IMG/VR virus record: IMGVR_UViG_3300042256_000013
Span: 288,001 to 352,000 of that record
Length of the DNA: 64,000 bases
From: a virus
Taxonomy: Duplodnaviria; Heunggongvirae; Uroviricota; Caudoviricetes
Strand: one strand, 5' to 3'
A program made the translations under genes and the position numbers. Shown here piece after piece: positions 1 to 64,000 of this stretch. The first letter of the stretch is position 1. Every line of letters starts with the position of its first letter. Under the pieces are notes generated by a model. It saw only the letters and a program-made list of their open reading frames with translations. It did not search any database and was not told where the DNA came from.

Positions 1-77
1 CATTGGAACTGCCTTTACTTCACTAAAGCCATGACCGCTTACAGTAACATAAAACAGAAATGTTGCTAATACCATTT

Positions 78-1334
78 TTAATCCTCCACTTTCAGAAGGT
101 ATTTGTTGTTGATGACTTTGAAGTGGATAGTCTGACCATTCACTTTTACAGTACTTTTGTACACATCACCTTCACAAATCGGAGCAACAATGCTCGCATG
201 ATCCGCTGATGCAAGTGCATCAGAGATGGAAGTGTATACATCAAAGAAGTATACAATTTCACCCTGCGGAACTACTGTCAGACCCAGGATATTTGACAAT
301 TCGATAAAATCAGCATCATCCAGGAAGTTCTGAGCATCAATATCCCAAACACGGAATGCATAGAACTGATGTTCTTCCAGTTGTTCGATATTACCCTGGA
401 TACCCGGACCCATACATTCGCCCTGAATAGCAAGCTGGCGATTGTTATCGGTGCAGTACTTACGTAGACGTTCAATAATATCGTCTTTCAATGCTGCTTT
501 CCAGAATGCTGCACTTTCATCGAACTTCAGTGCGAGGTTACGTGAACACACGATACCTTGACCTTCTTCCCACTGGAACGGATAAGGAATGACTTCTGCA
601 ACGTCCAGTGTCTGAGTTTCCTCATTAAACACTTTCAGATCATCATCAATCTTTTCTACAAAGAAATCAGGATTGCTTACGAAAGCAATAGTCTGACTTG
701 AACCTTCCAGTTTCAGAGATTTACGGAAAGGTACACCCTGCATAGTCTGACTGTACTTACCGAACACGTTCTGAATACGATCTTCATCAGTTTTTGGAAT
801 GAAGATCGGGAAGTTACCAGCAGTCTTAACACGACCTGCACCAGTACCGCCATTACGTTCATCAGGACGTTCGTACTTAGTTACATCCAGGAACTGTTCG
901 ATTCCATTGCGAGAATCTTCAAGTGCACGGAACACTTTACAGAAGCGTTCTACACTATCAGACGCTTTGATGCTGAGTTGTTCTGCAATTGCAGAAATAG
1001 TTTCTGGATCAATAATTGTAATCGGCAGAGCTAAGCCCTGGCTAACCTGTCCACGCAATTTAATAGTACGTAGACGGAGGCGTTCTTTACCAGCTTCATC
1101 AGTTTTAGTTCCATTGCGAAGCAAGAAACCAAACAATGGATTATCAGCAGGAAGAAAAGAATCGATTTCAAAGAAAATACAGTAATTCGTAGGTTCGAAT
1201 TCGCCTTTCTTAATAACGACTTGCCAGCCATCAACAGTTGCTACTTCGATAGCATCTGCATTTACAATTGGGTCAACCGCATTGATTTTACGGACAGTTA
1301 CCAGACGACGACCTTCAGTTACGAGTTCAGCCAT
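78..1334 (-). CDS. ATP-dependent RNA ligase, DRB0094/Rnl5-like (N-terminal OB-fold + ligase domain)
   Basis: N-terminal ADAIEVATVDGWQVV..KGEF..FEIDSFLP and KLRGQVSQGL; ligase motifs KLEGSS (I), QGECMGPGIQGN (III), EGDVYK (IV), FKVINNKYLLK (V). Confidence 0.85.
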   Translation of the reverse strand: MAELVTEGRRLVTVRKINAVDPIVNADAIEVATVDGWQVVIKKGEFEPTNYCIFFEIDSFLPADNPLFGFLLRNGTKTDEAGKERLRLRTIKLRGQVSQGLALPITIIDPETISAIAEQLSIKASDSVERFCKVFRALEDSRNGIEQFLDVTKYERPDERNGGTGAGRVKTAGNFPIFIPKTDEDRIQNVFGKYSQTMQGVPFRKSLKLEGSSQTIAFVSNPDFFVEKIDDDLKVFNEETQTLDVAEVIPYPFQWEEGQGIVCSRNLALKFDESAAFWKAALKDDIIERLRKYCTDNNRQLAIQGECMGPGIQGNIEQLEEHQFYAFRVWDIDAQNFLDDADFIELSNILGLTVVPQGEIVYFFDVYTSISDALASADHASIVAPICEGDVYKSTVKVNGQTIHFKVINNKYLLKVED

Positions 1335-1369
1335 TTTTCTTTTCTCTCTTTGTTTGATTAAGTGTGAGC

Positions 1370-1398
1370 ATTATACATAATACTCACTGACCTGTCAA
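1370..1398 (-). promoter_or_regulatory. Consensus sigma70-type (early) promoter upstream of the RNA ligase
   Basis: Minus strand TTGACA-17 nt-TATAAT, perfect consensus. Confidence 0.85.
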
Positions 1399-1973
1399 GC
1401 ACTTGGAAGACAAAAATCGATATAATTTTGTTCTTTGTCAGAGTCAGAATATAACGTATTTTTAACGTTCGTGAACAAATTTTCAATAAGGAACGGGCAA
1501 CCTTGATGGTTACGATAGTTCATTATAATCTGATCGACGTGCTTTGTAAAGCACACATCAGCATAAAGAATATTTTGTAATTCAGTACCATCAGGCCAAT
1601 AAGCATCATAGTACTTGTCTTCGTACTTAATAGCACAATGACAGAAAATATCAGGAAACTTATAGCCAGTCCATTCTGAACGTTCATCAGTTTGCCAAAG
1701 TCCGACAATTTCAACTTCAGTATTATGAACATCCATCATATACGATTGGACGAATAATGCAGTTGGTAAACAAATTCCAGTACCTAACTGATTACGACCA
1801 CTACATACACTCATATCGAACAAAACACGGTTCCATTTACGAGAACGTAGCAAATGTGGATAATTAGTTTCTAACCAGTTACGATGAATAGCATCATGGG
1901 CTGGTTTGAATACTTTTAAGTGTTCTAAAATTACAGCATTATAAGCATTACCAATACTTTCTGAAATATTCAT
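1395..1973 (-). CDS. Hypothetical protein, possible transglutaminase/papain-like Cys-His-Asp fold
   Basis: GICLPTALF ... CHCAIKYEDKYYDAY spacing; start placed at MNISES, coupled to the upstream stop. Confidence 0.5.
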   Translation of the reverse strand: MNISESIGNAYNAVILEHLKVFKPAHDAIHRNWLETNYPHLLRSRKWNRVLFDMSVCSGRNQLGTGICLPTALFVQSYMMDVHNTEVEIVGLWQTDERSEWTGYKFPDIFCHCAIKYEDKYYDAYWPDGTELQNILYADVCFTKHVDQIIMNYRNHQGCPFLIENLFTNVKNTLYSDSDKEQNYIDFCLPSA

Positions 1974-2290
1974 TATACTCTCCGATTCCATTTATTCATT
2001 ACTTCGTCAATTGAGTTGCCAGTAAGTTCACATCCACAACCAAATTCACTTTCGAGACAACTAAATGACCAAACATAACCACGTTCAGTAATTTGAGACT
2101 CTAGTAATATTTGTAAGGGATGTTGATAATAATAAATTATTCCTAAATCTTCACCAAAATCACGAATATCTAAAAAAGGAGATTTTACCCATTCTCCAGT
2201 CGGATAAAGACTATCATGTAAATTATAATGGCCTGGTTGATTTCCACAAAATGGGCATGGTTTAATTTCACCAGTATATGGATGACTCAT
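1973..2290 (-). CDS. Lar-like (restriction alleviation) zinc-finger protein
   Basis: KPCPFCG N-terminus, second Cys cluster and C-terminal KWNRR, typical of the Lar family. Confidence 0.6.
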   Translation of the reverse strand: MSHPYTGEIKPCPFCGNQPGHYNLHDSLYPTGEWVKSPFLDIRDFGEDLGIIYYYQHPLQILLESQITERGYVWSFSCLESEFGCGCELTGNSIDEVMNKWNRRV

Positions 2291-2299
2291 AGAAGTGCC

Positions 2300-2623
2300 T
2301 TAATATTTGATTGGTAAATCTTCAAGTTTAACATCTAATCCATAATGTTCATTGAACTGCTCAATATTAAGAAAAATTCTAGAAGCAATTTCTTTATTAC
2401 GAACACGTGAACGACTATTCTTAGATGTAATTTCAATAGGAACATTAACCATCTTACTAAATGAATTTCGACGATAAGCACGTTCTTGAACTTCAATACG
2501 ATGGAATTTATATTTAAGTTTTAAGTACTGAAAACCAGGATCACTTTGAAGAAGATAAAGTAATTTATTCTTCGTCCAAAATGTCATCTTCGCTTTGTTG
2601 CGATTGATCAATTTTCTTTTCAT
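2300..2623 (-). CDS. Hypothetical protein
   Basis: ORF in operon orientation. Confidence 0.55.
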   Translation of the reverse strand: MKRKLINRNKAKMTFWTKNKLLYLLQSDPGFQYLKLKYKFHRIEVQERAYRRNSFSKMVNVPIEITSKNSRSRVRNKEIASRIFLNIEQFNEHYGLDVKLEDLPIKY

Positions 2624-2756
2624 GTTCTTTTAATTTCTTACGTAAAGTTGAACTGCTGGAAAATCCAGGCTTAGCCTGGAATTCTTCTTTCCGAATCTCA
2701 TATTCCTTATTCAAGGATTTGAGAATCTTTTTTGCGTGTTTATTGAAATCACTCAT
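2565..2756 (-). CDS. Hypothetical protein
   Basis: ORF with ATGA overlap to the upstream gene. Confidence 0.5.
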   Translation of the reverse strand: MSDFNKHAKKILKSLNKEYEIRKEEFQAKPGFSSSSTLRKKLKEHEKKIDQSQQSEDDILDEE

Positions 2757-3088
2757 GGAGCAATGCCAACATCATACATGTCTTCATAAACAGTGCCGTC
2801 TTCATCAGTTACCATCTCACGAACCCAATCATGGTATTTTTGAGATGCTTCACCAGTTACAAAACGAAGTTCTGTATGACCGTTATCCCATGATGCTAAA
2901 GATACAATAACTGGAGTATCATTTAGAATACGAGCAGCTTGGTCGAGTACCCAATCTTTATGATGTTGACCATCAATACCGCCATACTTACCAATAAAGA
3001 TAAGAGCCATTACATCCGGTGGTGCTTCAAAGAATGGATTAAGTACTGGATCATTTGTTACATCTACAACGCCTAAATAGCCTTCCAT
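2753..3088 (-). CDS. Conserved phage hypothetical protein
   Basis: YGGIDGQHHKDWVLDQ motif; AAGGA RBS. Confidence 0.65.
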   Translation of the reverse strand: MEGYLGVVDVTNDPVLNPFFEAPPDVMALIFIGKYGGIDGQHHKDWVLDQAARILNDTPVIVSLASWDNGHTELRFVTGEASQKYHDWVREMVTDEDGTVYEDMYDVGIAP

Positions 3089-3097
3089 ATTTTTTCC

Positions 3098-3373
3098 TTA
3101 TGGGTACATGATTTGTTTCTTATATAATTCTTCAAGTTCTTCATCTGAGCAATTCATCAGATTTTCAAATTGTGGAAATTCAACAACTAGTGCTGAACTT
3201 TCAATCTCAAGTTCACAAACTTCAAATTTAACATTAGAATATTCATTATAATATTCTAAATATCCACGTTTGATCATAGCAGAACGCAGATTGTCATATT
3301 CACCTTTCACTTCTTCAATTGGATACATAGAATTTGGTTCAAAATATAATTCCAGTACTTTATAAATTTTCAT
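3098..3373 (-). CDS. Hypothetical protein
   Basis: Tightly packed ORF. Confidence 0.6.
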   Translation of the reverse strand: MKIYKVLELYFEPNSMYPIEEVKGEYDNLRSAMIKRGYLEYYNEYSNVKFEVCELEIESSALVVEFPQFENLMNCSDEELEELYKKQIMYP

Positions 3374-3375
3374 TT

Positions 3376-3909
3376 TTATTTTCCATGCAATGGTTTATTG
3401 CTTTGGTAATAATAAGTCTTCTCTGATGTTTCAAGAGTGAAACTTTTCTGACATAGTGCTTCTGCCAGTTTATATGCTAACGATTTTGCTTCTTCTAAAA
3501 GCTCATCATTCGATTTAGGAAATCGTGGATAACAAATAACACGAGCAGTAATACCAGATTCTTTACCGCCAGTATATACATAATCACACGGAGAGATTTG
3601 ATAACATGCACCTTGTTCGAAAGTGAATTCACGAGTCGTTTTAACTGCTGTATCATAATCACCTGCCATATGGATAGTCACATATGACGTATCACATGAG
3701 TTTACTTCTTTATAGAATTCATGTTCTACTTTTTGCTTCAGGGAAAGACGCTGGAACATTACATTGAACCATGAAGAAAGTTCATCGAGTTCAATTTCAG
3801 TTAGATAATCATGTGCTTCAATTCGAAGTCCTGAACTTCTTTTATACCATTCTTCAATAGTATAACAATCTTGATATATCTTTTCAAATTCAGATTTGAA
3901 ATTATGCAT
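3376..3909 (-). CDS. Hypothetical protein
   Basis: ORF with YVYTGGKESG..ICYPRFP motif. Confidence 0.65.
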   Translation of the reverse strand: MHNFKSEFEKIYQDCYTIEEWYKRSSGLRIEAHDYLTEIELDELSSWFNVMFQRLSLKQKVEHEFYKEVNSCDTSYVTIHMAGDYDTAVKTTREFTFEQGACYQISPCDYVYTGGKESGITARVICYPRFPKSNDELLEEAKSLAYKLAEALCQKSFTLETSEKTYYYQSNKPLHGK

Positions 3910-4498
3910 TTTCTACCTTTATTGGAGTTAAGTGTAATACAGGTTCAGCCATATGTTCTTCTAAATCAACAATACGAAGAAACGTATAAGGACTAATAGT
4001 ACGAGTAGTGTCAAAGCACAATCCAGGATTATGTTTGGATTCATACATACGACCATAACCATAATATTTGTTTTCAATCCAAATACGATCACCATTAGAA
4101 AAATTAATAGTGTGATTATCCAGTTCAGCTTGAACTTGATCATTTTCATAAGCAAGAATAAGACGTAAAATATAACGATCCGCACGGTCAATTATCGGTC
4201 GATCAGTATGTCTGTCTTTATATTCTTTCCATGCAGTTGGATATTGTTTTTTAAGATACTCAAAATGTTGGTCTGAGGTCATCACAACAGTTGGTATCTC
4301 TTCGGTGCTAAGTTCACCAGGAATTAAATTTTGGTCAGGGAGTCGTAAACGAGTCAATTCTATTTGAGCAGCTTCTATTTTCTTTAAAGCTTTAGTGCTA
4401 CGGATTGATGAAATTTGAGTATTAAACAACCAACCAAGAACGCCAATGATAGCATGTGAAGCTACAAGTCCAATGATGCCTACCGTTGTGATGATCAT
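3902..4498 (-). CDS. Hypothetical membrane-anchored protein
   Basis: Hydrophobic N-terminus; GAGGA RBS. Confidence 0.65.
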   Translation of the reverse strand: MIITTVGIIGLVASHAIIGVLGWLFNTQISSIRSTKALKKIEAAQIELTRLRLPDQNLIPGELSTEEIPTVVMTSDQHFEYLKKQYPTAWKEYKDRHTDRPIIDRADRYILRLILAYENDQVQAELDNHTINFSNGDRIWIENKYYGYGRMYESKHNPGLCFDTTRTISPYTFLRIVDLEEHMAEPVLHLTPIKVENA

Positions 4499-4998
4499 GA
4501 TAAGTGTACTTCCTCGTTTTTATGTTTACGTTTAAAGAAACCATGTTGAACATCTTTTTCATTATCTTCTTTCAACATAGAACGAATTTTCATAAGCTTT
4601 TTCCAAGCTTCAGTACTGATAGCTTTACGCCCATTACGAACATTATTTTTGTTCTGTTTATAATGAGCTACATGCAATGGTTCATCAGCCAGCCAGCCAA
4701 AACAATAATGGTCAGGTTGATCAATTTGAACATAGATACGTTGTGCATCATAACTAACTGCACCATTTTGAATCACTTTAGTGAACAATAAATTATCGTT
4801 GTACTTACTTAATTGAACAGTGAATTCACCATTCTCATATCGTTCAAGTACTCTAAGTAATCTTGCACTTTCAGCCTTATCTTTAAATGGATGCATCTGA
4901 AAACGCTGAGGTCCAATACCGAACCAACCTGCTAATGAGGCTTCCATAATGAACCATCCAGCACTAATACCAGTCATAATTGCGAATCCAAAAGGCAT
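4495..4998 (-). CDS. Hypothetical membrane-anchored protein
   Basis: Hydrophobic N-terminus; GGAG RBS. Confidence 0.65.
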   Translation of the reverse strand: MPFGFAIMTGISAGWFIMEASLAGWFGIGPQRFQMHPFKDKAESARLLRVLERYENGEFTVQLSKYNDNLLFTKVIQNGAVSYDAQRIYVQIDQPDHYCFGWLADEPLHVAHYKQNKNNVRNGRKAISTEAWKKLMKIRSMLKEDNEKDVQHGFFKRKHKNEEVHLS

Positions 4999-5034
4999 TT
5001 TTATTTCTCCATTAACTAGATAAGGCTGATTCTA

Positions 5035-5622
5035 TCAGCCTTCTTTGGGTGTGTCAAGCTTTTCTTTCTGGAATTTACGGTAACAGTGGCGGCACATGCT
5101 TCTGTAAACATCATTTCCACCAATCAAAACTTGTTCAGTACTTTCAACTAAACGAGCATTGAAGATAGCCTTTTTACCACAATGGCAAATAGTTTTCATC
5201 TCTTCAATACTATCAGCAATCTCAAGAAGACGTTTCGACCCACTGAACAAGTTAGATTCAAAGTCCGTCTTAATGCCATAACAAAGTACTGGAACATTTA
5301 AATCATCGGCTATTACACCTAGAATATCAACCTGTTCTTTAGAAAGAAATTGACATTCATCAATGAAAACTGCTTTAACATCGTTAGTAACAATATCTTC
5401 TATTGCTTTGGTAAGTACTGTTAAGTCATCTTTAGGAATAATAATAGCATCAGTTTCAATACCAATTCTGGATGTTACTTTTCCTGTTCCATATCTATCG
5501 TCCAGTGCAGATGTGAATACAAGTACGTTGTAATTACGTTCTTTGTAGTTATAAGCTGCCTGAAGAAGTGCTGTACTTTTTCCTGCTGACATTACAGAAT
5601 GTCGGAAATAAATCTTCGCCAT
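5035..5622 (-). CDS. tdk: Thymidine kinase
   Basis: MSAGKSTALL P-loop, VFIDECQFL, YGIKTDF, Zn motifs CHCG and CRHC. Confidence 0.95.
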   Translation of the reverse strand: MAKIYFRHSVMSAGKSTALLQAAYNYKERNYNVLVFTSALDDRYGTGKVTSRIGIETDAIIIPKDDLTVLTKAIEDIVTNDVKAVFIDECQFLSKEQVDILGVIADDLNVPVLCYGIKTDFESNLFSGSKRLLEIADSIEEMKTICHCGKKAIFNARLVESTEQVLIGGNDVYRSMCRHCYRKFQKEKLDTPKEG

Positions 5623-5635
5623 AGTAAAATCCTTT

Positions 5636-6120: not shown

Positions 6121-6144
6121 TTGTTCTAATTCCTTAAATTCTAA

Positions 6145-7935: not shown

Positions 7936-8385
7936 TTATTGTAGTACTTTAAGTTTATATAAGATGCTCTCAACAAAACTCATAATATCTTCGAGTGTGT
8001 TTACAGAGCCGTATTCTCCAAGTCCATCCAATATTTCATGTATTTTTATGCAATGTTTTACATATTCTTCCAGTAGAGGAATTGCTTCTTCAAAAGGTTG
8101 AAAAACATAAGAACTGCCAGTACTGAAAATTGGCCCACGGTCTGCCATCATTCCTTCTATGAAGGTATCAACATATTCTGGTAGGTTCTGATAGAATTCA
8201 TCCAGTTCCATATGTTTAGAATAGTAGTTGCACTGTAAGTGCCAGTGGTGTGCTTGGGATTCAAGAAATAGACTATTCTCTACGAATTTAATCAAAATAT
8301 CGTCATGAGTGTCGTCAGTAGTTTCTACATAATCAATCATACTGCGTATGTCGTTAGGATCAAAATGTTCGCTCATAAGTATCAT
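7936..8385 (-). CDS. Dps/ferritin-like protein
   Basis: AHHWHLQ..YSKHMELDEFY..DTFIE ferritin-like metal-binding pattern; TAAATA late-type element upstream at 8407-8412. Confidence 0.65.
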   Translation of the reverse strand: MILMSEHFDPNDIRSMIDYVETTDDTHDDILIKFVENSLFLESQAHHWHLQCNYYSKHMELDEFYQNLPEYVDTFIEGMMADRGPIFSTGSSYVFQPFEEAIPLLEEYVKHCIKIHEILDGLGEYGSVNTLEDIMSFVESILYKLKVLQ

Positions 8386-8921: not shown

Positions 8922-9394
8922 AAAAAAAGTCAGAACTAAGCTGACGGTGGTGGTCTTACCATCTGAATTTGTAGATTTCACTCAAATTTTGGACGGATCT
9001 ATATTGTCTAAAATTTGTAGTAAACACTGGCGGGTTGTCCGGTTTCCAGTTACTACAGTCGCATACAACGGTCGGAGTTTTCTCATTGCTCCGCATATAG
9101 TACTTGCTAATTCAGCAACAGGTACTATTGATATTCCGTAGAATATCTCCCTTTTAACAGGTGAGTATGCCTCTAATGCCTATCTGGTGCGTTCATGTCA
9201 AGGACGCATTTAAAGTGCCGCATTGCCGTGGGTGGTACAAACTATGCCAACTCCTAACGGGTAAAATATATTGCACTCGTACTGATTGAACTACTCAACT
9301 GCTGTTTACTTTTCAACGAGATCAGGTTCAAACTATTCCATTTCTGGATCAATCAGAGTTTTTAAAACAGTGAAGACCTTTTTATGATCTTCAC
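8922..9394 (-). ncRNA. Candidate large structured non-coding RNA (family unknown)
   Basis: No credible ORF, GC above background, at least 9 stems, extended -10 promoter at the 5' end, GTCAG/CTGAC + T7 terminator-like 3' end. Confidence 0.6.
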
Positions 9395-18961: not shown

Positions 18962-21709
18962 TTACCATCTTGTTCCTGTTCCTGATGGAACACCTGTACT
19001 TGCAGGAATAGCAGAACCACGTTGGGTTGTGCTTGGTCTGTAAGTTAAGAAACGAGTAACTTTCTCTGTAACAATTGATGATATATTTGAACCTCCAGTA
19101 ACTACAGTACCGATGAATACTCTATATAATTCTTCAGTTAACATAGTTTCACTGAATTGATATACAGCCGTACCTTCTATTACTGTTATGTACAAATAGA
19201 ATGTACTATTAGCTGGATTACTTTTTATCGTACTTAAATCAACTGATTGAACTGGCATATCATGATATTTTCCTCCTAACAATACTGGTACTGTTTGGGT
19301 GAAATACACATTAAATCCTTGAGCAACATCTTGTGCAGCTACAACAATTCTTTCAATTGGTTCACTTGCAGGATTAGCTACCATTGCATCAAATTGAGAA
19401 ACTGTTGTTCCGAATAATTTAAATATCAACTTTGTTTTAACATCAGTAATATCACCATTCTCAAATAATCCAAAACCGACACCTGGTAGAACACCAACTT
19501 CGTATGAATTATTTAAACTCGAATTATATCCAGTTGGAATCATTTTTGGTGTTCCAGTAATTAATTTAGTACTGTTATCTACTTTACATACAATAGAGGA
19601 TAAATTATCCGCACTTGTAACTACACAAGTACTTGAAGGAATTCCAACATATGTAAAATCATCATACTTTGCAACTATCAATCCTGGTTGTCTGTTTAAC
19701 ATTGCTTGTCTTATACTAGATGCTGGGAGAGATCTTGTTATATATCTGGTACTTTCAATACTGTATACTGTAACTACATTATTAACAATTCCCAAATCTA
19801 TTTCAGCTAATAACAAATATGTATTTGATTGACCAGTTGGTGCATCAGTAATACCAGTAACTACTGCATAACTTTTTGTAAATGTATTTGGAACATAATA
19901 AAGTATAATATATGAATTAGTTGTGTTATACACTATATTCGATGCCTGATCTGATATAATTTCCTGTTTAATTGTAACTAATAAATTATTGTCAATAGAA
20001 AAAGAATCACTAAATGAATAATTTGTTTGATCCATTACAGTACCACTGAACTTTGTTATATTTTCAATAAATGATGTACCATACACGGTACTGTTTCCAG
20101 TACCATCGACTATTGTGACCATGTTAGAGTAACGATGGTCAGTGTTATCAAGAAGTTGACGATTTACATTTGGTGCAAATCCAGTTAAAGTATTTCCATT
20201 AACTACTGATTTATATGGATATGTTCTGGTAGTTCCTAATGAAGTAACTACTGTATTATCTAATCCAAAATAATTTCCATTTTGTGTACCACTACAACAA
20301 ATGAATATTTTATCACGTGCTATAATTGTTGGATGTATTAAATTATCCCCAATAGGAGAACCGTATGTTGGATAAATTGAATTGACAATCGTGTTTGATA
20401 GTACTCTATTTTGAATATTCCAAGTTTCATATAATGAAACAAATGAATTCAATGTTCCTTTAGAAACGATATGTTCAGTAAATGTATCGTGTCTTGCCAT
20501 TGTACATAACGACACTCCATCATTCGTTGTAAAGATTGTAGGAACTCTATTCAATGATGCGTTTAACGACAATCCTGATAAATTTTGCATATCAAAAAAG
20601 AATGGGTTATCGTAAGTAATTACTCCAGTACTTGAAGTTGTTATAGTAACTGGTGCTTGTGCAGAAGTATCATATGTGTATTGTTTTGTACTTGTATCGT
20701 ACACAAAACTGATACCACTCATTGTTCTAAGATTAGATTGCTGAGTTGCAGTTTCAATACCATGCATAAATGCAACACGTATATTATTTCCTGAACCTGC
20801 TGCCTGTAATGAACCTTCAACATTTCCCCAAAAAATAGATATTCCTCTATAAACATTTCCAGTTGGAATTATAATATATGGTTTATCTGAACTATTTTGA
20901 CTAAAATACATATCAGCTAATTTAATATTAGGACTTGCAATTAATGTGTCACCATATAAATTTGTACCATTAAATCCAGTTACCTTTGTTAATGAAGTAT
21001 AAACTCCAGCTTTAACGTTAGCGACAGATATTGTATACAACGAAATAGCAAATTCTGATGTATTGTTGTATCCGTCTAAACACCAAATATAAACAACACC
21101 ATTATGTACCATTGCATATTGAGGGTCTGTATTAACAATTAATGATGCAGGAAATTCAACACTTTCATGTGAAATTGCATTTAATGTACCATTAGTTAAT
21201 GAAATACTGTACGTATTTTCTGTACCATTATTTGTGTGCATAAGCAATACATCACCGGCATTTGAACCAACAAACGAGTTCAATACATGATTAGATGTAA
21301 AAAATGATGGTACAAATTTTTCATTAGTTTGAACTGGAGATAAAACACTACTTGTTCTAACACTGCTTTGATAGCAATAGTAGTACCCGAAAGTACTACC
21401 ATTAGTTCCTGGTCGAAGATAAACCATTGTTCCGTCATTTTCTAAAATTACGGGTTGTATACCTTTTCCTGTATAGTTCGTGGCTCCTTCGAAGGAGCCA
21501 TTAATACTCATAGGTAGATAATCCATCGTACCTACTCTTGATATTGGAAGAATAGAAACTATTTCATCAAATTCAGTTTTTGTGTAATATGGAAAATCCA
21601 GATTACCTTCAATATCAGGTGTTATATCGTTAACATCACGAATAACGTTAAGACCTTTTGTAGATATGTTTGCATCTACGCTTAGATCTCCATAAATTTT
21701 TTTAGACAT
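18962..21709 (-). CDS. Large putative virion structural protein (tail/baseplate-associated), paralog A
   Basis: S/T/N/G-rich, beta-strand-like; shares N- and C-terminal modules with the two upstream genes. Confidence 0.6.
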   Translation of the reverse strand: MSKKIYGDLSVDANISTKGLNVIRDVNDITPDIEGNLDFPYYTKTEFDEIVSILPISRVGTMDYLPMSINGSFEGATNYTGKGIQPVILENDGTMVYLRPGTNGSTFGYYYCYQSSVRTSSVLSPVQTNEKFVPSFFTSNHVLNSFVGSNAGDVLLMHTNNGTENTYSISLTNGTLNAISHESVEFPASLIVNTDPQYAMVHNGVVYIWCLDGYNNTSEFAISLYTISVANVKAGVYTSLTKVTGFNGTNLYGDTLIASPNIKLADMYFSQNSSDKPYIIIPTGNVYRGISIFWGNVEGSLQAAGSGNNIRVAFMHGIETATQQSNLRTMSGISFVYDTSTKQYTYDTSAQAPVTITTSSTGVITYDNPFFFDMQNLSGLSLNASLNRVPTIFTTNDGVSLCTMARHDTFTEHIVSKGTLNSFVSLYETWNIQNRVLSNTIVNSIYPTYGSPIGDNLIHPTIIARDKIFICCSGTQNGNYFGLDNTVVTSLGTTRTYPYKSVVNGNTLTGFAPNVNRQLLDNTDHRYSNMVTIVDGTGNSTVYGTSFIENITKFSGTVMDQTNYSFSDSFSIDNNLLVTIKQEIISDQASNIVYNTTNSYIILYYVPNTFTKSYAVVTGITDAPTGQSNTYLLLAEIDLGIVNNVVTVYSIESTRYITRSLPASSIRQAMLNRQPGLIVAKYDDFTYVGIPSSTCVVTSADNLSSIVCKVDNSTKLITGTPKMIPTGYNSSLNNSYEVGVLPGVGFGLFENGDITDVKTKLIFKLFGTTVSQFDAMVANPASEPIERIVVAAQDVAQGFNVYFTQTVPVLLGGKYHDMPVQSVDLSTIKSNPANSTFYLYITVIEGTAVYQFSETMLTEELYRVFIGTVVTGGSNISSIVTEKVTRFLTYRPSTTQRGSAIPASTGVPSGTGTRW

Positions 21710-27355: not shown

Positions 27356-29161
27356 TTAGCTTCCGTGTTTGATTCTTTGTATAACTTCTTGTTGTTTACC
27401 AGTATTGAAAGGTCTACTATTCGGTGCACTAAGATAACCAGAAACTCTACGAATAACTGACATAGTACCTTCTTCTCGGTTATCACATTGTGGACAATGG
27501 AACCCGACTTTATCTACCGAAAATTCACCTTCAAAATCGCACTTATAACATTTATCGACAGGTTGATTAATCCCAAAATATGGAATACGGTCATACGCAT
27601 AATCAATTAGTACTTCTAAGGCTTTCAAATTGTTAGAAAGATTTGGAGTCTCTACATAACTGATGTTTCCACCATTACTTAAGTACGCAAAACTTTCTTC
27701 GTAATCAAATTTACTGAAAGGAGATGATTCAATCCATACTGGTTGGTGGAATGAATTTGTTATAAAATCTCTCTTTAGTACATTTGGGTATTTTTCTTCT
27801 ATTGCTTTCGCAAATTTATAACATAAGCTCTCTGCTGGCGTTCCATATAAACTAAATGCGATAGTACTTTCATCTTTGAATTGTTCACATTTGTATTTCA
27901 TATAGTGCAAGATGGATTTACAATAATCCTTACTTAACTGTCCAAGCATAATTTCAGAACATTCAGCTAATCCAACATATCCAATACTGATACTTGCGTA
28001 TCCATTATAGAATAATTGATCAATTGTATCATCAGCATTCAATCTAGCAATAGCACCTTCCATAAACATAGTAGGGTTTTGACGAGCTTTCATTGTTTTC
28101 AATCGTTCTACACGATTCATTTGTGCTCGGTAAGCCATTGTCATGTGATAATCCAATTTACCGAAGAATTCACCATCGGATTTAGATTCAAGAGCAAGTA
28201 ATGGGAGATTAATAGATACTACACCTAAGTTAAATCTTCCATCATATTGTTCAGTACCTTCATTTTCCCATTTTCCAAGGAATGAACGACAACCCATAGG
28301 GGAAACGGCAATAGAAGTACTGCCAGTTACTTTCTTGTTTAATGGTACTGATACGAAATCTGGATAAATTCTCTTAGCACTTGTTTTAAGTGCTTGCTGT
28401 TTAAGGTCATAATTAGGATCAGACTCTTTCATGTTCACACCATCTTCTAAGAAGAAGACAACTTTAGGAAACACTGGAGTACTGCCATCTACACCTAAAC
28501 CTTTCTCATGTACTTTTAAGTACGAATCAGTAATCATCTTACCAAATTTAGAGGTGTTTAGACCCATTGTAATAGTTACAAACGGGGTTTGACCGTTACT
28601 GCTTGTGATGGTATTAACCTGGTACAGAAGTGCTTGCATAGCGTCGTACACCTCTTTCTGGAGGGTCTTCTGTACGTATTCATCCGGTAGACCGAATTCT
28701 TTTTGTTGCTCCAGAAGCTTGTTATAGGACTTCTGAACGTATGGTTCAAGACCAAAATCAATATGTGCAAGTGTTTGACCACCGTATTGACTTGCGGAAA
28801 CTGCCAGTACTATTTGTGTTAGTACAGTACTTGCTACACCAATACTATTAGGTGTACCAACTTGTGCATTACCAATCTTGAAACCATTTTCTAACATATC
28901 TCTGTAATTAACTAAACAACAGTTAGTCAAAGGGCTTATGAAATAGTCTAGATCGTGTATATGACCATATCCATTCTTGTGCCAAAGCATAAGTTCTTCT
29001 GAGATTTCATCCTCTGCATAATGCTTAGATAAAATACCTGCTAGTAAGTCACGATGCGTGTTTACAATCTTCGCATCCTTATTAGCATTCTCATTCATTA
29101 TATCTTTATTACTTTGGTTTATTAGTGCGGATACATCATTAAACAGTCTATCGTTATTCAT
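27356..29161 (-). CDS. nrdD: Anaerobic (class III) ribonucleoside-triphosphate reductase, no ATP cone
   Basis: HIHDLD, NCCL, PMGCRSFL, PAESLC, CxxC..CxxC, RRVSGYL glycyl-radical loop. Confidence 0.97.
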   Translation of the reverse strand: MNNDRLFNDVSALINQSNKDIMNENANKDAKIVNTHRDLLAGILSKHYAEDEISEELMLWHKNGYGHIHDLDYFISPLTNCCLVNYRDMLENGFKIGNAQVGTPNSIGVASTVLTQIVLAVSASQYGGQTLAHIDFGLEPYVQKSYNKLLEQQKEFGLPDEYVQKTLQKEVYDAMQALLYQVNTITSSNGQTPFVTITMGLNTSKFGKMITDSYLKVHEKGLGVDGSTPVFPKVVFFLEDGVNMKESDPNYDLKQQALKTSAKRIYPDFVSVPLNKKVTGSTSIAVSPMGCRSFLGKWENEGTEQYDGRFNLGVVSINLPLLALESKSDGEFFGKLDYHMTMAYRAQMNRVERLKTMKARQNPTMFMEGAIARLNADDTIDQLFYNGYASISIGYVGLAECSEIMLGQLSKDYCKSILHYMKYKCEQFKDESTIAFSLYGTPAESLCYKFAKAIEEKYPNVLKRDFITNSFHQPVWIESSPFSKFDYEESFAYLSNGGNISYVETPNLSNNLKALEVLIDYAYDRIPYFGINQPVDKCYKCDFEGEFSVDKVGFHCPQCDNREEGTMSVIRRVSGYLSAPNSRPFNTGKQQEVIQRIKHGS

Positions 29162-51468: not shown

Positions 51469-51894
51469 TTAGTAAATATCGCCAGAAATGGTACTTACGT
51501 TACCATTAATATCATCACAGTCTACATCTCCAGAAATGGTATTAACATTTCCAGAAACATCGTCACAAGTTATATCTCCAGATGTAGTTCCAATGTTACC
51601 AAAAACATTTTCACAATTTACATCGCCAGAGACAGTATTAATTCCATTGGTTACATTAGCACAAGTAATTGTGCCATTACCAAGAGTAATGGATTCAACA
51701 TCACCATTTACTTCGATGTTTATTTCAACATCATCCCCAACAACCGGTAATCCATCAATAGTGATAAATGTACCGCCATCAGAAGTTTTCTTTACTACCA
51801 TTTCACTAAAAACAGTACTTTGACCATTAACCGTTACTTGGGTGTTTTTCGATGCCATTTGCATTAGTCGAATCAAAGCATCATTACTTGGCAT
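51469..51894 (-). CDS. Beta-helix repeat protein (DUF4097-like)
   Basis: Repeated NTxSGD[VI]xC units. Confidence 0.65.
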   Translation of the reverse strand: MPSNDALIRLMQMASKNTQVTVNGQSTVFSEMVVKKTSDGGTFITIDGLPVVGDDVEINIEVNGDVESITLGNGTITCANVTNGINTVSGDVNCENVFGNIGTTSGDITCDDVSGNVNTISGDVDCDDINGNVSTISGDIY

Positions 51895-58298: not shown

Positions 58299-58307
58299 TT
58301 CAGTACC

Positions 58308-58825: not shown

Positions 58826-59166
58826 TCCACGTTAGCATCAGTACTGCGATATTTGCTTGTACTTTGATCTTCATTCCAACGTTCTTCACAACACTTACAT
58901 GTAATAGCGTACCAATAAGAATCATCGGTTTTACACCAGTTTCCAGTATCAGCTTCTGGTTTTACAGTTACATATTTGTGTTTACAGTTAACTCTGAACG
59001 CATTTAAATCACTTATAGCTTTACCAGAGATTTCACGTAAACGTAAGTATTCCATACGTTGTGCTGCGAATTCCTGGTCTTCAGCATCTTTAAGTTCCTG
59101 ATATTCCATTGCACGTTCTTTAGACGTGAATTCAGATCCATCAGGAGTTATATAAACTTTAGTCAT
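58810..59166 (-). CDS. Hypothetical protein with Cys/His motif
   Basis: CKH..DTGNWCKTDDSYW..CKCC. Confidence 0.65.
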   Translation of the reverse strand: MTKVYITPDGSEFTSKERAMEYQELKDAEDQEFAAQRMEYLRLREISGKAISDLNAFRVNCKHKYVTVKPEADTGNWCKTDDSYWYAITCKCCEERWNEDQSTSKYRSTDANVEWIGR

Positions 59167-59366
59167 TTGTTTTTCCTATCTCTGATTTTTTCAACTATTA
59201 ACATAGGAATCAAAATGAACCATAGTACTGCGAATCCAGAATTAATAAAGAATCCTATTGGTTCATTCCAACTTTTTTCCATAGTATTAGAAATGACAAG
59301 CGTTAGTACTAATCCTACTACATAGATTATACAAACAATACCGATAAATTCTAACATTAGTCCCAC
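59163..59366 (-). CDS. Small membrane protein
   Basis: Two TM segments. Confidence 0.55.
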   Translation of the reverse strand: MGLMLEFIGIVCIIYVVGLVLTLVISNTMEKSWNEPIGFFINSGFAVLWFILIPMLIVEKIRDRKNK

Positions 59367-59707
59367 CCTAAATGATAACGCCAGCCTTGGGAACCGAAAG
59401 CATCATCATTATCACCAGCATCAAGAATGCTAATCATAAATTCGATTTCATCAGAAACCATAACGCCATTAACTGGAATTGAATTGGAAATATTGTCAAG
59501 TACTGCGGGGGTAAGTGGTGAGTAGTTTTCGAATAAGTCTTCGAAATCTGCATCGTCATGTCCAGAATAGTATTCGCGGTCAAATTCAACTACAAGATTA
59601 TACATAGTTCTTATATCACGGGCAAAAGAATCACGGTCAGATTCAGTACTGAATACTCCGTTAACTTCTAATTCGTTTTGTAATTTACCAAATTCACGTT
59701 CAGTCAT
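59357..59707 (-). CDS. Hypothetical protein
   Basis: C-terminal DDAFGSQGWRY. Confidence 0.65.
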   Translation of the reverse strand: MTEREFGKLQNELEVNGVFSTESDRDSFARDIRTMYNLVVEFDREYYSGHDDADFEDLFENYSPLTPAVLDNISNSIPVNGVMVSDEIEFMISILDAGDNDDAFGSQGWRYHLGWD

Positions 59708-59994
59708 ACGTAACGCTCCATCAATTTATCAAAGATTTCTTTTAATGATTTTCCATTGAACCAATCAACTAACTCTAAATCATTAAAAGATGAATCTTCA
59801 TCTTGATCTTCAGCGTGTTCATAGATTTCAACCATCCACGTTTTATTGAAATTTATATCAATTTTAAATACAAGTTCATTAAACGTGGATTCTTCAATAG
59901 TATCCATAATATTAGATACATATTCAAACTGTTCGTCTTCCGAGAGTTCATCAGGGAAGACGTATTTTACTTCATTAGCCATAACGTTTACCAA
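59704..59994 (-). CDS. Acidic hypothetical protein
   Basis: Packed ORF. Confidence 0.6.
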   Translation of the reverse strand: MVNVMANEVKYVFPDELSEDEQFEYVSNIMDTIEESTFNELVFKIDINFNKTWMVEIYEHAEDQDEDSSFNDLELVDWFNGKSLKEIFDKLMERYV

Positions 59995-60139
59995 TTAACC
60001 ACAGGCCAATTAATGCCAGTAGTGGAGAGAATACAACTGCTACTACACCCCAAATAAATGGACTACGTTTCTGTTTGTTCGCGAAAACAATAACCAGAAC
60101 AAATGCGATGATCCAAATCAGTGTAAAAAAGATGCTCAT
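59975..60139 (-). CDS. Small two-TM membrane protein (54 aa, not in the ORF track)
   Basis: MSIFFTLIWIIAFVLVIVFANKQKRSPFIWGVVAVVFSPLLALIGLWLIGKRYG; AAGGA RBS. Confidence 0.6.
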   Translation of the reverse strand: MSIFFTLIWIIAFVLVIVFANKQKRSPFIWGVVAVVFSPLLALIGLWLIGKRYG

Positions 60140-60149
60140 ATTTTATTCC

Positions 60150-60353
60150 TTACCAGTCGAGTTTACTTGCTCGTTCGTTGATCATTTTGATTGCTTCTTG
60201 ACGATTACGTTCATGTTCGTAATCTTCTTTTGTCCAGGGAACTTCTATGAGTTCCAATCCACAGCAGCGGCCTAACATGAATTCTTCCGAACCATAGCCA
60301 TCACCACAAATTTGACAAACTGTTTTAGTACGAATGTGATGTACATTAGTCAT
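60150..60353 (-). CDS. Small zinc-ribbon protein
   Basis: CQICG..RCCG; start reassigned to MTNVHH. Confidence 0.55.
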   Translation of the reverse strand: MTNVHHIRTKTVCQICGDGYGSEEFMLGRCCGLELIEVPWTKEDYEHERNRQEAIKMINERASKLDW

Positions 60354-60600
60354 ACAAACCGTCCATAATAATATCATAATAGTTATCAAGAAATTCTTCT
60401 TCCTCAAAACCATAGTGTTTAGTATGAATAGTTATATCACGAACTTCATAATTAGGATTTTTAAGAAAATTATCAATCTGAGATTTTACAGAAGCATGAA
60501 TCTCTTCAGGAGATGCGTTCATAAACAACTCACTCCATGAGTAATTGCTATCCTCATAAAATCCTAGTACTACACAAGCGAATACTAACTTATCAGTCAT
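60346..60600 (-). CDS. Hypothetical protein
   Basis: Packed ORF. Confidence 0.55.
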   Translation of the reverse strand: MTDKLVFACVVLGFYEDSNYSWSELFMNASPEEIHASVKSQIDNFLKNPNYEVRDITIHTKHYGFEEEEFLDNYYDIIMDGLYD

Positions 60601-60860
60601 TTCTTTCTACTCCAATAGTCGAATGCATGAATAAAGATATTACGAATAGTAATATCATTAATATTATCCATGTGTTCTTTTATGACAGAAACATCATAAG
60701 TTTCGTTAGTTTGAATGTACTGAACAATATCTTTCATTGGTGGAAAAACCTCATATATATCTGAATTTCTGAATATTTGGGAAAAATAAACAGGGTCATT
60801 AATTATGAAATCACCAATACTACGAATCAATTGTTTCTCGTTTAACGAGTATTCATTCAT
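60597..60860 (-). CDS. Hypothetical protein
   Basis: Packed ORF. Confidence 0.55.
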   Translation of the reverse strand: MNEYSLNEKQLIRSIGDFIINDPVYFSQIFRNSDIYEVFPPMKDIVQYIQTNETYDVSVIKEHMDNINDITIRNIFIHAFDYWSRKK

Positions 60861-61059
60861 TTTGATTTCCAGGACTTGTCAGTACATCAACCTTAATATC
60901 ATATTGATCTTCTGGATAGATATTACGAAGAGAAGCTATACAACCACCAACACCCAAATACCCACCAATTGCGTTGAGATAATTCTCAGTACTTTGTGCG
61001 ATAATATCGTATGGTTCTTTGCTATCTTTTTTACGAATTGTATATACAACGTGAATCAT
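60853..61059 (-). CDS. Hypothetical protein
   Basis: AAGGAG RBS. Confidence 0.6.
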   Translation of the reverse strand: MIHVVYTIRKKDSKEPYDIIAQSTENYLNAIGGYLGVGGCIASLRNIYPEDQYDIKVDVLTSPGNQNE

Positions 61060-61083
61060 GTTGTACTCCTTATATGTTAAATT

Positions 61084-61109
61084 AAAAGAAAGGACACTAT
61101 AGTGTCCTT
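61084..61109 (-). terminator. Intrinsic terminator
   Basis: AAGGACACT-AT-AGTGTCCTT plus T-rich tract. Confidence 0.65.
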
Positions 61110-61809
61110 ATTTGTCTTTCCATTTTTTACCATTTTGCCAATCTGGATGACTTAATCTATAATCATTTTCATCCATAGTATGGGTGACAGTGCCATCTTT
61201 ATGAACTAACCATTTTCTTTTAGAAGCAGCAGATGAATAATTTTTCTTATGTTCTTCTGTTCGAATTTTTCCAGTATTACTTTTTCTAATTCCATCAGAC
61301 CATTTTTGTTTTTCAGAATAAGACATATTATAAAAACAAGGCTTTCCATACATAGGATTATTTTCACCAACGAATTTTCCTATCATACGTTCACTAATTT
61401 TTGAACAAAATTCATCTGTCATTTTCATTCCTTTATTCCATGATACCACTTCCCCATTGTCATATTGGGCTTTTCGTATTCTGGACATATTTTGAATGAA
61501 TTGTTCTTTTTCTTCATTACTCATAAATGCGGTCATTCCACCACGACCACCAACCTTACAATTATATGTATCTTTTCTTTTAATGAATTCTTCATTCACT
61601 ATTTCTTTTTCTTTATCATACATATCAGAAGGTGTATCTAAAATGAATAAGGTTTCTCTCTTAAAATTTTCTATACCATATTTTTTAATGGCAAGTTTTA
61701 TGTATTTCCCAGAACCCATATAACTGTCATTCAAATTTTCAGTTTTATGTGCTCCAATATAAATTTTATTATTAATTAAATTTGTTACTTTGTAAATTAA
61801 ATAGTGCAT
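61108..61809 (-). mobile_element. Free-standing GIY-YIG homing endonuclease (Seg-like) with NUMOD3-type repeats
   Basis: YLIYKVTNLINNKIYIGAH..YMGSG..YGIENF..YNCKVGG; GENNPMYGK, RTEEHKKN; start at MHYLIY after GGAGG. Confidence 0.88.
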
Positions 61810-61827
61810 ACAATCCTCCGTATGCAC

Positions 61828-61835
61828 TATTTATA
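61828..61835 (-). promoter_or_regulatory. T4-type late promoter
   Basis: Exact TATAAATA overlapping the RBS-sequestering hairpin. Confidence 0.7.
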
Positions 61836-61841
61836 TCATTG

Positions 61842-62768
61842 TTAGAAATTACCTTCCGCGACAGCAAACACTTTCAACTTCAAAAGTTTACGCCACATTT
61901 CCACAACTTTTTGCCTGTCATCGTAAACTTTTTTCACATCGAAATTATTGAAGACATGTTCCATATACAGTTCGTACTTCACAATGTCGTCTGAACGGCT
62001 GTCATCTGCACCACGCATGAAGATATGATCGTATGGAATCAAATATGTCTGAAGCCATTTTTCAGTTTCTTCTTTACAGGTTTCATGACGACCACTCATG
62101 ATGATCACTGTACGACCAAGATAGTTCTTTTCTGCCAGTACTGACAGAATTACTTCTGCGTCTGGATCATCGACAGATACTTTCGTTTCTTCGTATGGAC
62201 CACGTTTACCATTCATATGAGCCAAAGTACCGTCAATATCAACAACGATGGCTTCAGGAAGATTAGTATTCGTTGGTACTGGAGCAGTGAAAGAACTGTA
62301 GAAGTACTTTTCTGCCATACCATCGATCACTTCTTCCGGTACTGATTTTTCACGAAGCAGGTTACGTTCCTTACACAGTTTAACGTACTCCTTAACTGCA
62401 AAGAACTCGTGAATGAAAGTTTTACCTTTCTTGAATTCTTCAAAGAAGTTTTGTTCTTTGTAAGTATAGCCCTGCTCTTTTGCGAACTCTTTCCACTTCT
62501 CACGAACGGAAGGGTTCAGACCAGTGTCGGCAACAATGATGTTCCACTTGTTAGCTGCTGCATGTACCGCTGCACTGTACTGAGCGTTTTGCACGTACTG
62601 TTCGTTGTCTTTGCGGAACTTGTAGTTACTATGGGAACCAGCCATTGTTTGGCGAATGTCATCAAGGTTTACAATAACAGTCTTTGACCGTGCTGATTTC
62701 ACTTGTTCATTCGCCCAGGTAGTTTTACCGCAACCCGGCAATCCGATTGTTACTGTTACTTGTGGCAT
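61842..62768 (-). CDS. pseT: Polynucleotide 5'-kinase / 3'-phosphatase
   Basis: GLPGCGKTT, NLDDIR; HAD motif DIDGTLA, SGR, MR..DSRSD..VK, YDDR. Confidence 0.95.
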   Translation of the reverse strand: MPQVTVTIGLPGCGKTTWANEQVKSARSKTVIVNLDDIRQTMAGSHSNYKFRKDNEQYVQNAQYSAAVHAAANKWNIIVADTGLNPSVREKWKEFAKEQGYTYKEQNFFEEFKKGKTFIHEFFAVKEYVKLCKERNLLREKSVPEEVIDGMAEKYFYSSFTAPVPTNTNLPEAIVVDIDGTLAHMNGKRGPYEETKVSVDDPDAEVILSVLAEKNYLGRTVIIMSGRHETCKEETEKWLQTYLIPYDHIFMRGADDSRSDDIVKYELYMEHVFNNFDVKKVYDDRQKVVEMWRKLLKLKVFAVAEGNF

Positions 62769-62982
62769 TTTCTTTTCCTATTCCAAATTTATCAGAGAAA
62801 ATTTTCAATACATGTTCAGACAAACGAATACTCGCTGAGTCCTCGCGAGAACTGTATTTCAACGGTGTCCATTCTAACCCATTTGAATCGAGAAAGTCAA
62901 GCCCTCGGAAGTAATCTTTTAACGAATTAAATTTGATTACGGTCATATCCTGGACGATGCTATGTTGCACTTGTACTTTCAT
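62725..62982 (-). CDS. Hypothetical protein
   Basis: AGGAG RBS. Confidence 0.5.
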   Translation of the reverse strand: MKVQVQHSIVQDMTVIKFNSLKDYFRGLDFLDSNGLEWTPLKYSSREDSASIRLSEHVLKIFSDKFGIGKENATSNSNNRIAGLR

Positions 62983-62993
62983 GTGATTCTCCT

Positions 62994-63224
62994 TTAGATT
63001 ATAATGTACTTGTCATGGTACTTCATCGTCAAATTGAAGAATGCTCCTTCGTCGAAGTAGAATTCCCTATCGACAATAAAGGCCACGTCACCTATATTTC
63101 TTACATAGTCCAGCATCTCCTGCATAGTATATGCGGGTAGATCTGTATATGATATAACTGAAAATTCCTGATCTCGGTATAGTACTTTAGCCGTTTGTAA
63201 TGTTGTTTGATTACTCACGAGCAT
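62994..63224 (-). CDS. Hypothetical protein
   Basis: Packed ORF. Confidence 0.55.
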   Translation of the reverse strand: MLVSNQTTLQTAKVLYRDQEFSVISYTDLPAYTMQEMLDYVRNIGDVAFIVDREFYFDEGAFFNLTMKYHDKYIII

Positions 63225-63450
63225 ATCTTCCTAAATCATAAATTTTTGATTTTTTGTTTTTGGGCTTACGATCCTTCTTATACGCAGTTGAACTAACTCC
63301 AAAAGTATTTTTAAGACGCTTAGCAGATTTCTGAACCCCTTTCCTTGAGCGTTCAGACTGAACAGCGTCTATCTCTTGTAGTATTCTTCTATGTTCTTCA
63401 GGAGTTCGTACTTCGCCCTTTGTTGCTTTATACTTTGGTTTAGCCATCAC
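63211..63450 (-). CDS. Small basic hypothetical protein
   Basis: K/R-rich, AAGGAG RBS, TAAATA at 63468-63473. Confidence 0.55.
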   Translation of the reverse strand: MMAKPKYKATKGEVRTPEEHRRILQEIDAVQSERSRKGVQKSAKRLKNTFGVSSTAYKKDRKPKNKKSKIYDLGRYARE

Positions 63451-63482
63451 TACTCCTTGTGGTAGGCTATTTAGAAGTACTG

Positions 63483-64000
63483 TTAGAAGTCGAAATCCTT
63501 CAGTACTTCTTTCATGTATTTCAGCATCACACCCTTGTAATCAACAGGACGTTGTTGATACAGGCTGAACGCAATACCCGGCTTACCAAGTTCGTTAGGC
63601 AGAACCTTCTGAACCTGCAATGCGTAGTCCTTACGTTCGAGATGCTTGTTCTGATCGTAAAACGCTTCACTTTCAGTGACTAATGCATTATAGCACGAAA
63701 ATACAAGCTGTTCCATTTTTTCAATCTTTTTCATTGCGTACACGTCAGTACTGAACATCTGTTTCAGGTCATCAGATGCACCTTGTACTACAGTTTCGTA
63801 CAAGCGTGAATCAACGTTGATGCCATCCTTAGTAAAGTGCAGAGCACAATACCAGTCAGTTTTAATTTTGCACATACGACCATCTTTCAGGATCAGTACG
63901 TACCCTTCAATGTCTGTCATTGCACGACATGCATCAATACTTTCGAACAATGTTTCTTTCATTGGGAAAGTTGAATCAATTTCACCGTACTTCTCAAATA
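63483..64000 (-). CDS. rnlA: RNA ligase 1 (T4 RnlA-like), 3' part; the frame is open to the window edge
   Basis: IEGYVL..KIKTDWYCALH motifs IV/V, DDLK, RKDYA. Confidence 0.85.
   Translation of the reverse strand, partial: FEKYGEIDSTFPMKETLFESIDACRAMTDIEGYVLILKDGRMCKIKTDWYCALHFTKDGINVDSRLYETVVQGASDDLKQMFSTDVYAMKKIEKMEQLVFSCYNALVTESEAFYDQNKHLERKDYALQVQKVLPNELGKPGIAFSLYQQRPVDYKGVMLKYMKEVLKDFDF

Follow-up and report, generated by a model that had tools for sequence, protein, structure and literature searches.

The palindrome AGTACT is strongly over-represented across RaK2-like jumbo phages and may be an unmethylated word read by a symmetric DNA-binding factor

Results and discussion

We analyzed the hexamer palindrome AGTACT in a 64,000-nucleotide stretch of viral DNA (hereafter, the window), taken from a complete phage genome of 371,104 bp (bases 288,001-352,000; IMG/VR record IMGVR_UViG_3300042256_000013). 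The phage is Mimasvirus-like and belongs to the RaK2-like jumbo phages of Enterobacterales. Its whole genome holds 1087 copies of AGTACT, compared with approximately 125 expected (8.7-fold), and the excess is common to the whole clade. Our preferred reading, which we consider plausible although short of probable, is that AGTACT, with CAGTACTG as its optimal form, has been selected as an unmethylated word, that a putative symmetric factor recognizes it on double-stranded DNA, and that it is not the target of the DNA methyltransferase encoded within the window. According to this proposal, selection would hold AGTACT at high density as an unmethylated recognition word, and a dimer-type symmetric DNA-binding factor, encoded by either the phage or its host, would read it on double-stranded DNA. 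Such a factor may coat or mark the phage DNA, and may also control, probably by shutting them off, early promoters that carry AGTACT boxes.

Over-representation of AGTACT in the window and in the genome

The window contains 166 AGTACT sites, whereas dinucleotide-preserving shuffles yield 15.2±3.7 (maximum 26) and a zero-order model predicts 21.6. AGTACT is the sole outlier of the 64 hexamer palindromes, with a 7.7-fold excess against 2.3-fold for the runner-up, and 27 other hexamer palindromes have zero copies in the window. By reading frame the sites are distributed as 73, 18 and 74, with 158 lying within genes and 8 not fully inside a called gene; 74 sites take the form CAGTACT and 28 the form CAGTACTG. 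These counts agree closely with an initial annotation made by eye, which had described sites in all three frames and throughout the window, often as CAGTACT: each of the 15 coordinates it listed is a real AGTACT site, and its count of 24 sites in the first 9.1 kb is exact up to position 9104. The excess over base composition that it claimed was also recovered, although the GC content of the window is 35.0% and not approximately 33%.

At the genome scale, the word CAGTACTG occurs 170 times, compared with a single occurrence of the reversed control word. We then compared the genes with a synonymous-codon shuffle that preserves the protein sequence, every dipeptide and the codon usage of each gene, and this null gave 251±12 AGTACT sites versus 963 observed, with each frame 3.5- to 4.3-fold over expectation. 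This was the test on which the initial annotation had staked its claim, and since the excess survives a protein-preserving shuffle, it is not a coding artefact. A maximum-order Markov null was discarded: it expects 145 sites in the window versus 166 observed and absorbs the signal, since the shorter words AGTAC, GTACT and GTAC are in excess too. At the core of the enrichment is GTAC (2.4-fold) with A/T adjoining. In four jumbo genomes, position -1 of the site is occupied by C with a frequency of 0.35-0.49 (2- to 3-fold enriched) and by G with a frequency of 0.06-0.08 (0.4-fold), and this preference is mirrored at +1.

The pressure to keep AGTACT has altered the protein sequences of the phage. 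The Ser-Thr dipeptide is found at 1.49-fold its expectation versus 0.99-fold for Thr-Ser, and Val-Leu, Gln-Tyr and Lys-Tyr are raised as well, whereas the reversed dipeptides are not. The codon pair AGT-ACT accounts for 484 of the 783 Ser-Thr pairs, with 116 expected. This cost is high enough to change proteins, and something valuable must therefore read AGTACT.

We also considered that the word could act in RNA, through self-pairing of AGUACU, or through a physical trait intrinsic to the DNA, for instance a flexible central TA step. Pairing would be open to any two copies carried by the same transcript, and most sites indeed lie within genes. Nevertheless, non-coding DNA is richer in AGTACT than coding DNA (4.0 versus 2.8 per kb), both strands show the flank preference symmetrically, TGTACA, a related palindrome, is without enrichment, and the AGTACT boxes of the promoters described below sit at fixed positions upstream of the transcription start. 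We regard this explanation as very unlikely.

Distribution of AGTACT across the clade

The nearest isolates of the phage are Xanthomonas phage XbC2 and Erwinia phage Kaldavass, with approximately 85-87% nucleotide identity, and its more remote relatives include GAP32, CBB, BF, RaK2 and 121Q. All of the relatives compared in the clade are rich in AGTACT: XbC2 has 1105 copies, GAP32 1011, the Serratia phage BF 1072, CBB 1235, RaK2 937, 121Q 903, PBECO4 891, Kaldavass 1114 and Hallingskeid 1313. These 891-1313 copies per genome hold for ten relatives, which span four named genera together with the unclassified Hallingskeid, and TCATGA, a control palindrome of the same composition, has 134-200 copies in each of the AGTACT-rich relatives. 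Outside the clade, the T4-like phage RB14 has 24 AGTACT sites versus 50 of the control palindrome, and the distant jumbo relative XacN1, a Xanthomonas citri phage, has 0 copies in 384,670 bp, with about 90 expected and a normal count of GTAC. XacN1 lacks 25 hexamer palindromes and provides a natural negative control for the clade. Literature searches that combined these phages with AGTACT or ScaI yielded no paper describing the enrichment.

Phages normally lose short palindromes, since restriction enzymes cut them. The RaK2-like clade purges GCGC and many hexamer palindromes, but a single restriction-type site, apparently unprotected, persists in it at about a thousand copies.

The methyltransferase of the window and the methylation of AGTACT

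The initial annotation had interpreted AGTACT as a selected mark similar to the cyanobacterial HIP1 element, methylated by an SPPY methyltransferase encoded in the window. The DNA-level, selected and clade-wide nature of the excess stands; the assignment of the mark to this enzyme finds no support, for the reasons given below. The gene itself is real: it encodes an orphan enzyme of the PF01555 family (Table 1) whose nearest solved structure is that of the N4-cytosine enzyme M.PvuII, and judging from these features it is probably of the N4-cytosine type, as is M.ScaI. Four AGTACT sites lie within the gene.

The expected association between methyltransferase presence and AGTACT excess was not observed. 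RaK2, 121Q, PBECO4 and Hallingskeid, despite their 891-1313 copies, yielded no PF01555 gene in profile and tblastn searches. A C5 methyltransferase (PF00145) was likewise not found in BF, which has 1072 copies. Homologues of Dam (PF05869) are present in all four AGTACT-rich relatives compared by tblastn, and Dam goes with GATC. Since neither PF01555 nor PF00145 is found in every AGTACT-rich relative and Dam goes with GATC, no methyltransferase family tracks the enrichment, and the co-occurrence with a word-targeting methyltransferase that a HIP1-like system would display is lacking. The phage genome encodes three methyltransferases, namely Dam (357848-358396), a C5 enzyme (103576-104460) and the PF01555 enzyme. 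The phage-type Dam gene adjoins a cytidylyltransferase-like gene (genome 357308-358396 for the pair), and both have homologues in the four AGTACT-rich relatives.

Published methylomes of two relatives bear directly on this question. Kaldavass CDS0509, the orthologue of the window enzyme with 96.5% identity, is one of three methyltransferases listed for that phage, whereas Hallingskeid has two (PMC11780129). The comparison of native and amplified DNA by Nanopore sequencing with Tombo gave GATC, CCWGG and TGCAT as the modified motifs of Kaldavass, and only GATC and CCWGG as those of Hallingskeid (PMC11780129). AGTACT is not listed as modified in either phage, in spite of more than 1100 sites in each, with the motifs having been picked by manual inspection (PMC11780129). 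Of these two phages, only the one carrying the PF01555 enzyme shows modified TGCAT. With Dam and the C5 enzyme set aside, we infer by elimination that the target of the PF01555 enzyme would be TGCAT and not AGTACT.

The fate of TGCA sites in XbC2, which is about 85% identical to the phage, agrees with this assignment. The ratio of observed to expected TGCA is 0.31 in XbC2, compared with 1.22 in the phage, 1.73 in GAP32 and 1.50 in RaK2. The phage TGCA sites that are kept in XbC2 amount to 9%, 22% and 39% when zero, one or two strands read TGCAT (two corresponding to ATGCAT), whereas in the GAP32 control the values are 33%, 41% and 40%, with almost no gradient. This graded loss is the pattern expected if TGCAT methylation shields the sites from a TGCA-cutting enzyme, and it thus gives independent support for TGCAT as the target; the loss looks like a recent adaptation of XbC2 to a host restriction enzyme that cuts TGCA. 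The idea that AGTACT is a methylation mark written by the PF01555 enzyme, in the manner of M.ScaI, can draw on a genuine orphan m4C-type methyltransferase within the window. However, it faces four equally AGTACT-rich relatives without the gene, two methylomes in which AGTACT is not listed as modified, and the evidence for TGCAT. We consider it largely refuted and highly improbable. Discounting the neighboring methyltransferase and, probably, methylation in general narrows the search to a DNA-binding or nuclease-restraining factor, possibly encoded by the host.

A second carrier of the word: small proviruses, and their hosts

A pattern scan of IMG/VR recovered a family of small proviruses (G001-G004), unrelated to the jumbo phages but from the same host order. 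They measure 28-32 kb, encode a serine integrase and have 33-36 genes according to our own gene calls. Each carries 85-136 copies of AGTACT versus 4-13 of the control palindrome, and the C...G flank of the jumbo phages recurs in three of the four. Relatives of these proviruses were found in Leclercia, Phytobacter, Yersinia and Atlantibacter; a megablast search of a small provirus against the phage collection and complete E. coli genomes gave no match. The Leclercia, Phytobacter and Yersinia genomes contain AGTACT at 0.11-0.13 per kb, half of the control count, so that the phage is about 25 times denser in the word than the host genomes.

We searched for a reader gene common to the jumbo phages and the small proviruses, and this candidate explanation was rejected: by tblastn, a T4-type lysozyme, at 39-49% identity, is the only gene common to all the small and jumbo genomes compared, with an HNH endonuclease and two methyltransferases shared sporadically. 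The lysozyme domain is found as three paralogues per jumbo genome, 32-49% identical to the small-provirus endolysin, with loci in the phage genome at 224398-225389 and 283578-284519; this likeness suggests gene flow between the jumbo phages and the small proviruses. Within the small-provirus family only structural and lysis genes are conserved, which leaves it without a conserved regulator able to be its own reader. Given that no plausible reader gene is shared, the reader would be encoded either by the host or by the jumbo phages, with mimicry by the small phages in the latter case. One specific version of this scenario is that AGTACT serves the RaK2-like jumbo phages as an unmodified 'self' word, that its reader is encoded by Enterobacterales or by the jumbo phages, and that unrelated small temperate phages independently adopted or copied the word with its flank to use this reader. 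We hold this version to be unlikely; if true, it would be a sequence tag of phage DNA without known precedent.

Conservation, density and spacing of the sites

In a whole-genome alignment of the phage with XbC2, 72.8% of the AGTACT sites are intact, compared with 46.8% for all hexamers, which ranks AGTACT fourth among 1978. Against GAP32 the values are 51.8% and 28.4%, respectively. The word is therefore retained across relatives beyond the background, and its excess extends over the whole genome, whether coding or non-coding and whatever the frame; both are features of HIP1-like elements. AGTACT reaches 3.5 per kb where the genome has no alignment to relatives, against 2.5 per kb in the most conserved core, and it peaks at 5-8 per kb in the early region near the genome ends. 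A word that is densest in fast-evolving DNA and sparsest in the conserved core is consistent with selection on site number within the limits set by protein constraint. These densities also led us to reject the idea that recently acquired DNA is devoid of AGTACT, the non-aligning segments being the richer ones.

A mechanism that needs no reader would be biased repair or gene conversion of the very-short-patch kind, converting near-matches into AGTACT and leaving the excess as a by-product. Very-short-patch repair is the classical explanation for the excess of CCWGG and the loss of CTAG in enterobacteria, and the phage likewise shows an excess of CCAG and a depletion of CTAG; moreover, a conversion bias would make the sites appear conserved. 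On the other hand, the transition or deamination neighbours of AGTACT are not depleted (AGTATT 1.03-fold, AATACT 1.14-fold), and no single-base variant dominates at lost sites, the seven commonest having 8-14 cases each. Undepleted neighbours together with the flat spectrum of variants argue against a mechanism of this type. In addition, the AGTACT-poor hosts make a repair bias of host origin unlikely, and no repair gene is common to the jumbo phages and the small proviruses. Altogether, we judge this explanation to be rather improbable.

A perfect tandem array, (AGTACTGGAT)x12, places 12 AGTACT sites exactly 10 bp apart at genome positions 19058-19177, outside the window, in an AGTACT-crowded region beside a switch from minus-strand to plus-strand genes. 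The absence of a 10-bp spacing peak in XbC2, GAP32 and RaK2 indicates that the array is apparently not conserved. Together with the small-provirus family, it provides ready materials for binding studies.

Promoter context of AGTACT

In the early region (genome 4-14 kb, outside the window), strong sigma70-type promoters were found with the arrangement AGTAC-TTGCAA-N10-11-(G)AGTACT-T-TATAAT, in which one AGTACT abuts the -35 hexamer and the other abuts the -10 hexamer, with the two boxes 20-21 bp apart. The spacing peak of the dual boxes at 20-21 bp is also present in RaK2, and AGTACT pairs spaced by 22 bp recur in Hallingskeid. Within the window, close pairs are found at 28806..28831 (Table 1), 37693/37713 and 58228/58249, and no early-promoter context was seen at any of the three; nor did the window yield any dual-box promoter.

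Candidate readers and the weight of the evidence

To define candidate readers, we listed the proteins conserved in XbC2, GAP32, RaK2 and Hallingskeid and not found in XacN1, which amounted to 146, and scanned with Pfam 40 of them, picked for high conservation or location in the early region. The matches among these 40 were KTSC, PD-(D/E)XK, ParE-like, HD, cytidylyltransferase-like, a weak AAA and Dam. The PD-(D/E)XK nuclease (genome 169951-170652), which shares 76-80% identity with its RaK2 and Hallingskeid counterparts, is a candidate partner in any reading of AGTACT that involves a nuclease.

Such a reading would make AGTACT a Chi-like tag of self and non-self, by which a helicase-nuclease or host-DNA-degrading enzyme, of phage or host origin, spares AGTACT-dense DNA and destroys the AGTACT-poor host chromosome. 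A palindrome would work in both orientations, the contrast in density between phage and hosts is large, the word peaks in the early region near the genome ends, a clade-conserved nuclease not found in XacN1 is available, and the tag could have been copied by small proviruses of these hosts as a means of survival. However, no nuclease is tied to AGTACT, both the flank symmetry and the fixed placement in promoters point instead to a binder of double-stranded DNA, and the Chi octamer itself is only about 2-fold over its codon-shuffle expectation. We therefore see a nuclease-restraining tag as a minor possibility.

Several observations weigh against a symmetric DNA-binding factor as the reader, which remains our preferred reading. 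No DNA-binding domain was detected in the 40 clade proteins scanned with Pfam, and no reader was identified among them. The spacing of the sites is near random, without a regular array except for the single 10-bp tandem repeat. Across the genome there are 6 full dual-box promoters and about 85 contexts of the -35 type among the 1087 sites, so that promoters account for under a tenth of them, and none of the strong promoter-like sites checked in the window has AGTACT at the fixed promoter positions. Finally, a biased repair process could likewise yield conservation above the background.

Other features of the window

The features located in the window are collected in Table 1. The DUF5856 gene is the sole window gene with any DNA-binding label and is a candidate in this sense, with nothing tying it to AGTACT. 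The stretch around the GIY-YIG gene does not align to XbC2. The initial annotation had pointed out that this gene is free of AGTACT, which is correct (0 sites, 2.2 expected, not significant); since 12 window genes of at least 150 amino acids are also free of the word, the observation carries no weight. A tandem repeat of 48 bp (3.2 copies, 74% matches) lies at 51478-51630 within a minus-strand gene.

Table 1. Location of the AGTACT sites and of selected genes in the window.
Feature	Position in window	Strand	Details
AGTACT dispersed copies (best form CAGTACTG)	1..64000	.	166 copies, part of 1087 genome-wide
DUF5856 protein, clade-conserved	7936..8385	-	annotated 'starvation-inducible DNA binding protein' in XbC2
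Orphan beta-class DNA methyltransferase, PF01555	14990..15850	-	TSPPYA and C-terminal DPFGGSGTT
Paired AGTACT sites 20 bp apart, inside gene	28806..28831	.	site coordinates
GIY-YIG (Seg-like) homing endonuclease gene	61108..61827	-	YLIYKV...KIYIGAHK; low-GC (0.29) stretch

Other word biases of the clade

The phage genome lacks 19 hexamer palindromes, and 16-27 are absent across the clade. GCGC is absent from the four jumbo genomes and the three small proviruses tabulated, as well as from Hallingskeid, and GATATC occurs twice in genes versus 97 expected from codon shuffles. GATC and CCWGG, reported as methylated in the relatives, are not avoided in the phage. The best-conserved hexamer is TATTTA, with 82% of its sites kept in XbC2 and 75% in GAP32. 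Most genes lie on the minus strand, and TATTTA probably represents the complement of a minus-strand late-promoter core of the T4 type (TATAAATA). The Chi fragments CTGGTG, CACCAG and TGGTGG are among the most enriched hexamers genome-wide, and the full Chi octamer has 25 copies, compared with approximately 1.3 per strand expected from composition. As the octamer is only about 2-fold over the codon-shuffle expectation on the sense strand, most of the Chi excess stems from codon usage.

Comparison with known systems

M.ScaI and the ScaI-type restriction-modification systems share the identical hexamer, and the window likewise encodes an m4C-type methyltransferase. In contrast to such a system, enrichment and methyltransferase do not go together, and the published methylomes do not list AGTACT among the modified motifs; the complete loss of the word in XacN1 is what an ordinary restriction target would show.

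The SlmA-binding site (SBS, GTGAGTACTCAC) of E. coli has the same AGTACT core as the phage sites, and is a dispersed palindrome read by a dimeric helix-turn-helix protein of the host order of the phage. SlmA requires G at position 1, T at position 2 and a purine at position 3 before AGTACT (PMC3020112). The phage sites differ in favoring C and avoiding G at -1 and in displaying no preference for G or T at -3 and -2: G at -3 and T at -2 stand at about 1.0- to 1.1-fold in three Mimasvirus genomes, and RaK2, which differs, is not enriched for G/T in the SBS sense. Full SBS sites number 0 in the four jumbo genomes, and SlmA was rejected as the reader, its flank requirements being unmet. The LexA box, the CTG priming site of DnaG and the gyrase consensus were set aside as appearing to fit the palindrome and its flanks poorly.

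Chi (GCTGGTGG) and the DNA uptake sequences (USS/DUS) resemble AGTACT as over-represented identity words with a large contrast in density with other DNA. They are nevertheless asymmetric and orientation-dependent, with known readers, whereas AGTACT is a palindrome.

TF1 of SPO1 and p6 of phi29 are genome-coating phage DNA-binding proteins that repress early promoters. They resemble the proposed use of AGTACT in having many sites over the phage genome, with preferred ones inside early promoters. These proteins recognize modified DNA or DNA shape, whereas AGTACT is a strict palindrome of 6-8 bp.

HIP1 (GCGATCGC) of cyanobacteria is likewise a short palindrome over-represented in and between genes, kept by selection, and it shifts the choice of codons and dipeptides as AGTACT does. 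HIP1 was reportedly discussed by Elhai in 2015 in connection with cognate methyltransferases. AGTACT differs in that no methyltransferase tracks it and that it is not reported as modified, and while HIP1 resides in cellular chromosomes, AGTACT accumulates in the genomes of phages that purge other palindromes.

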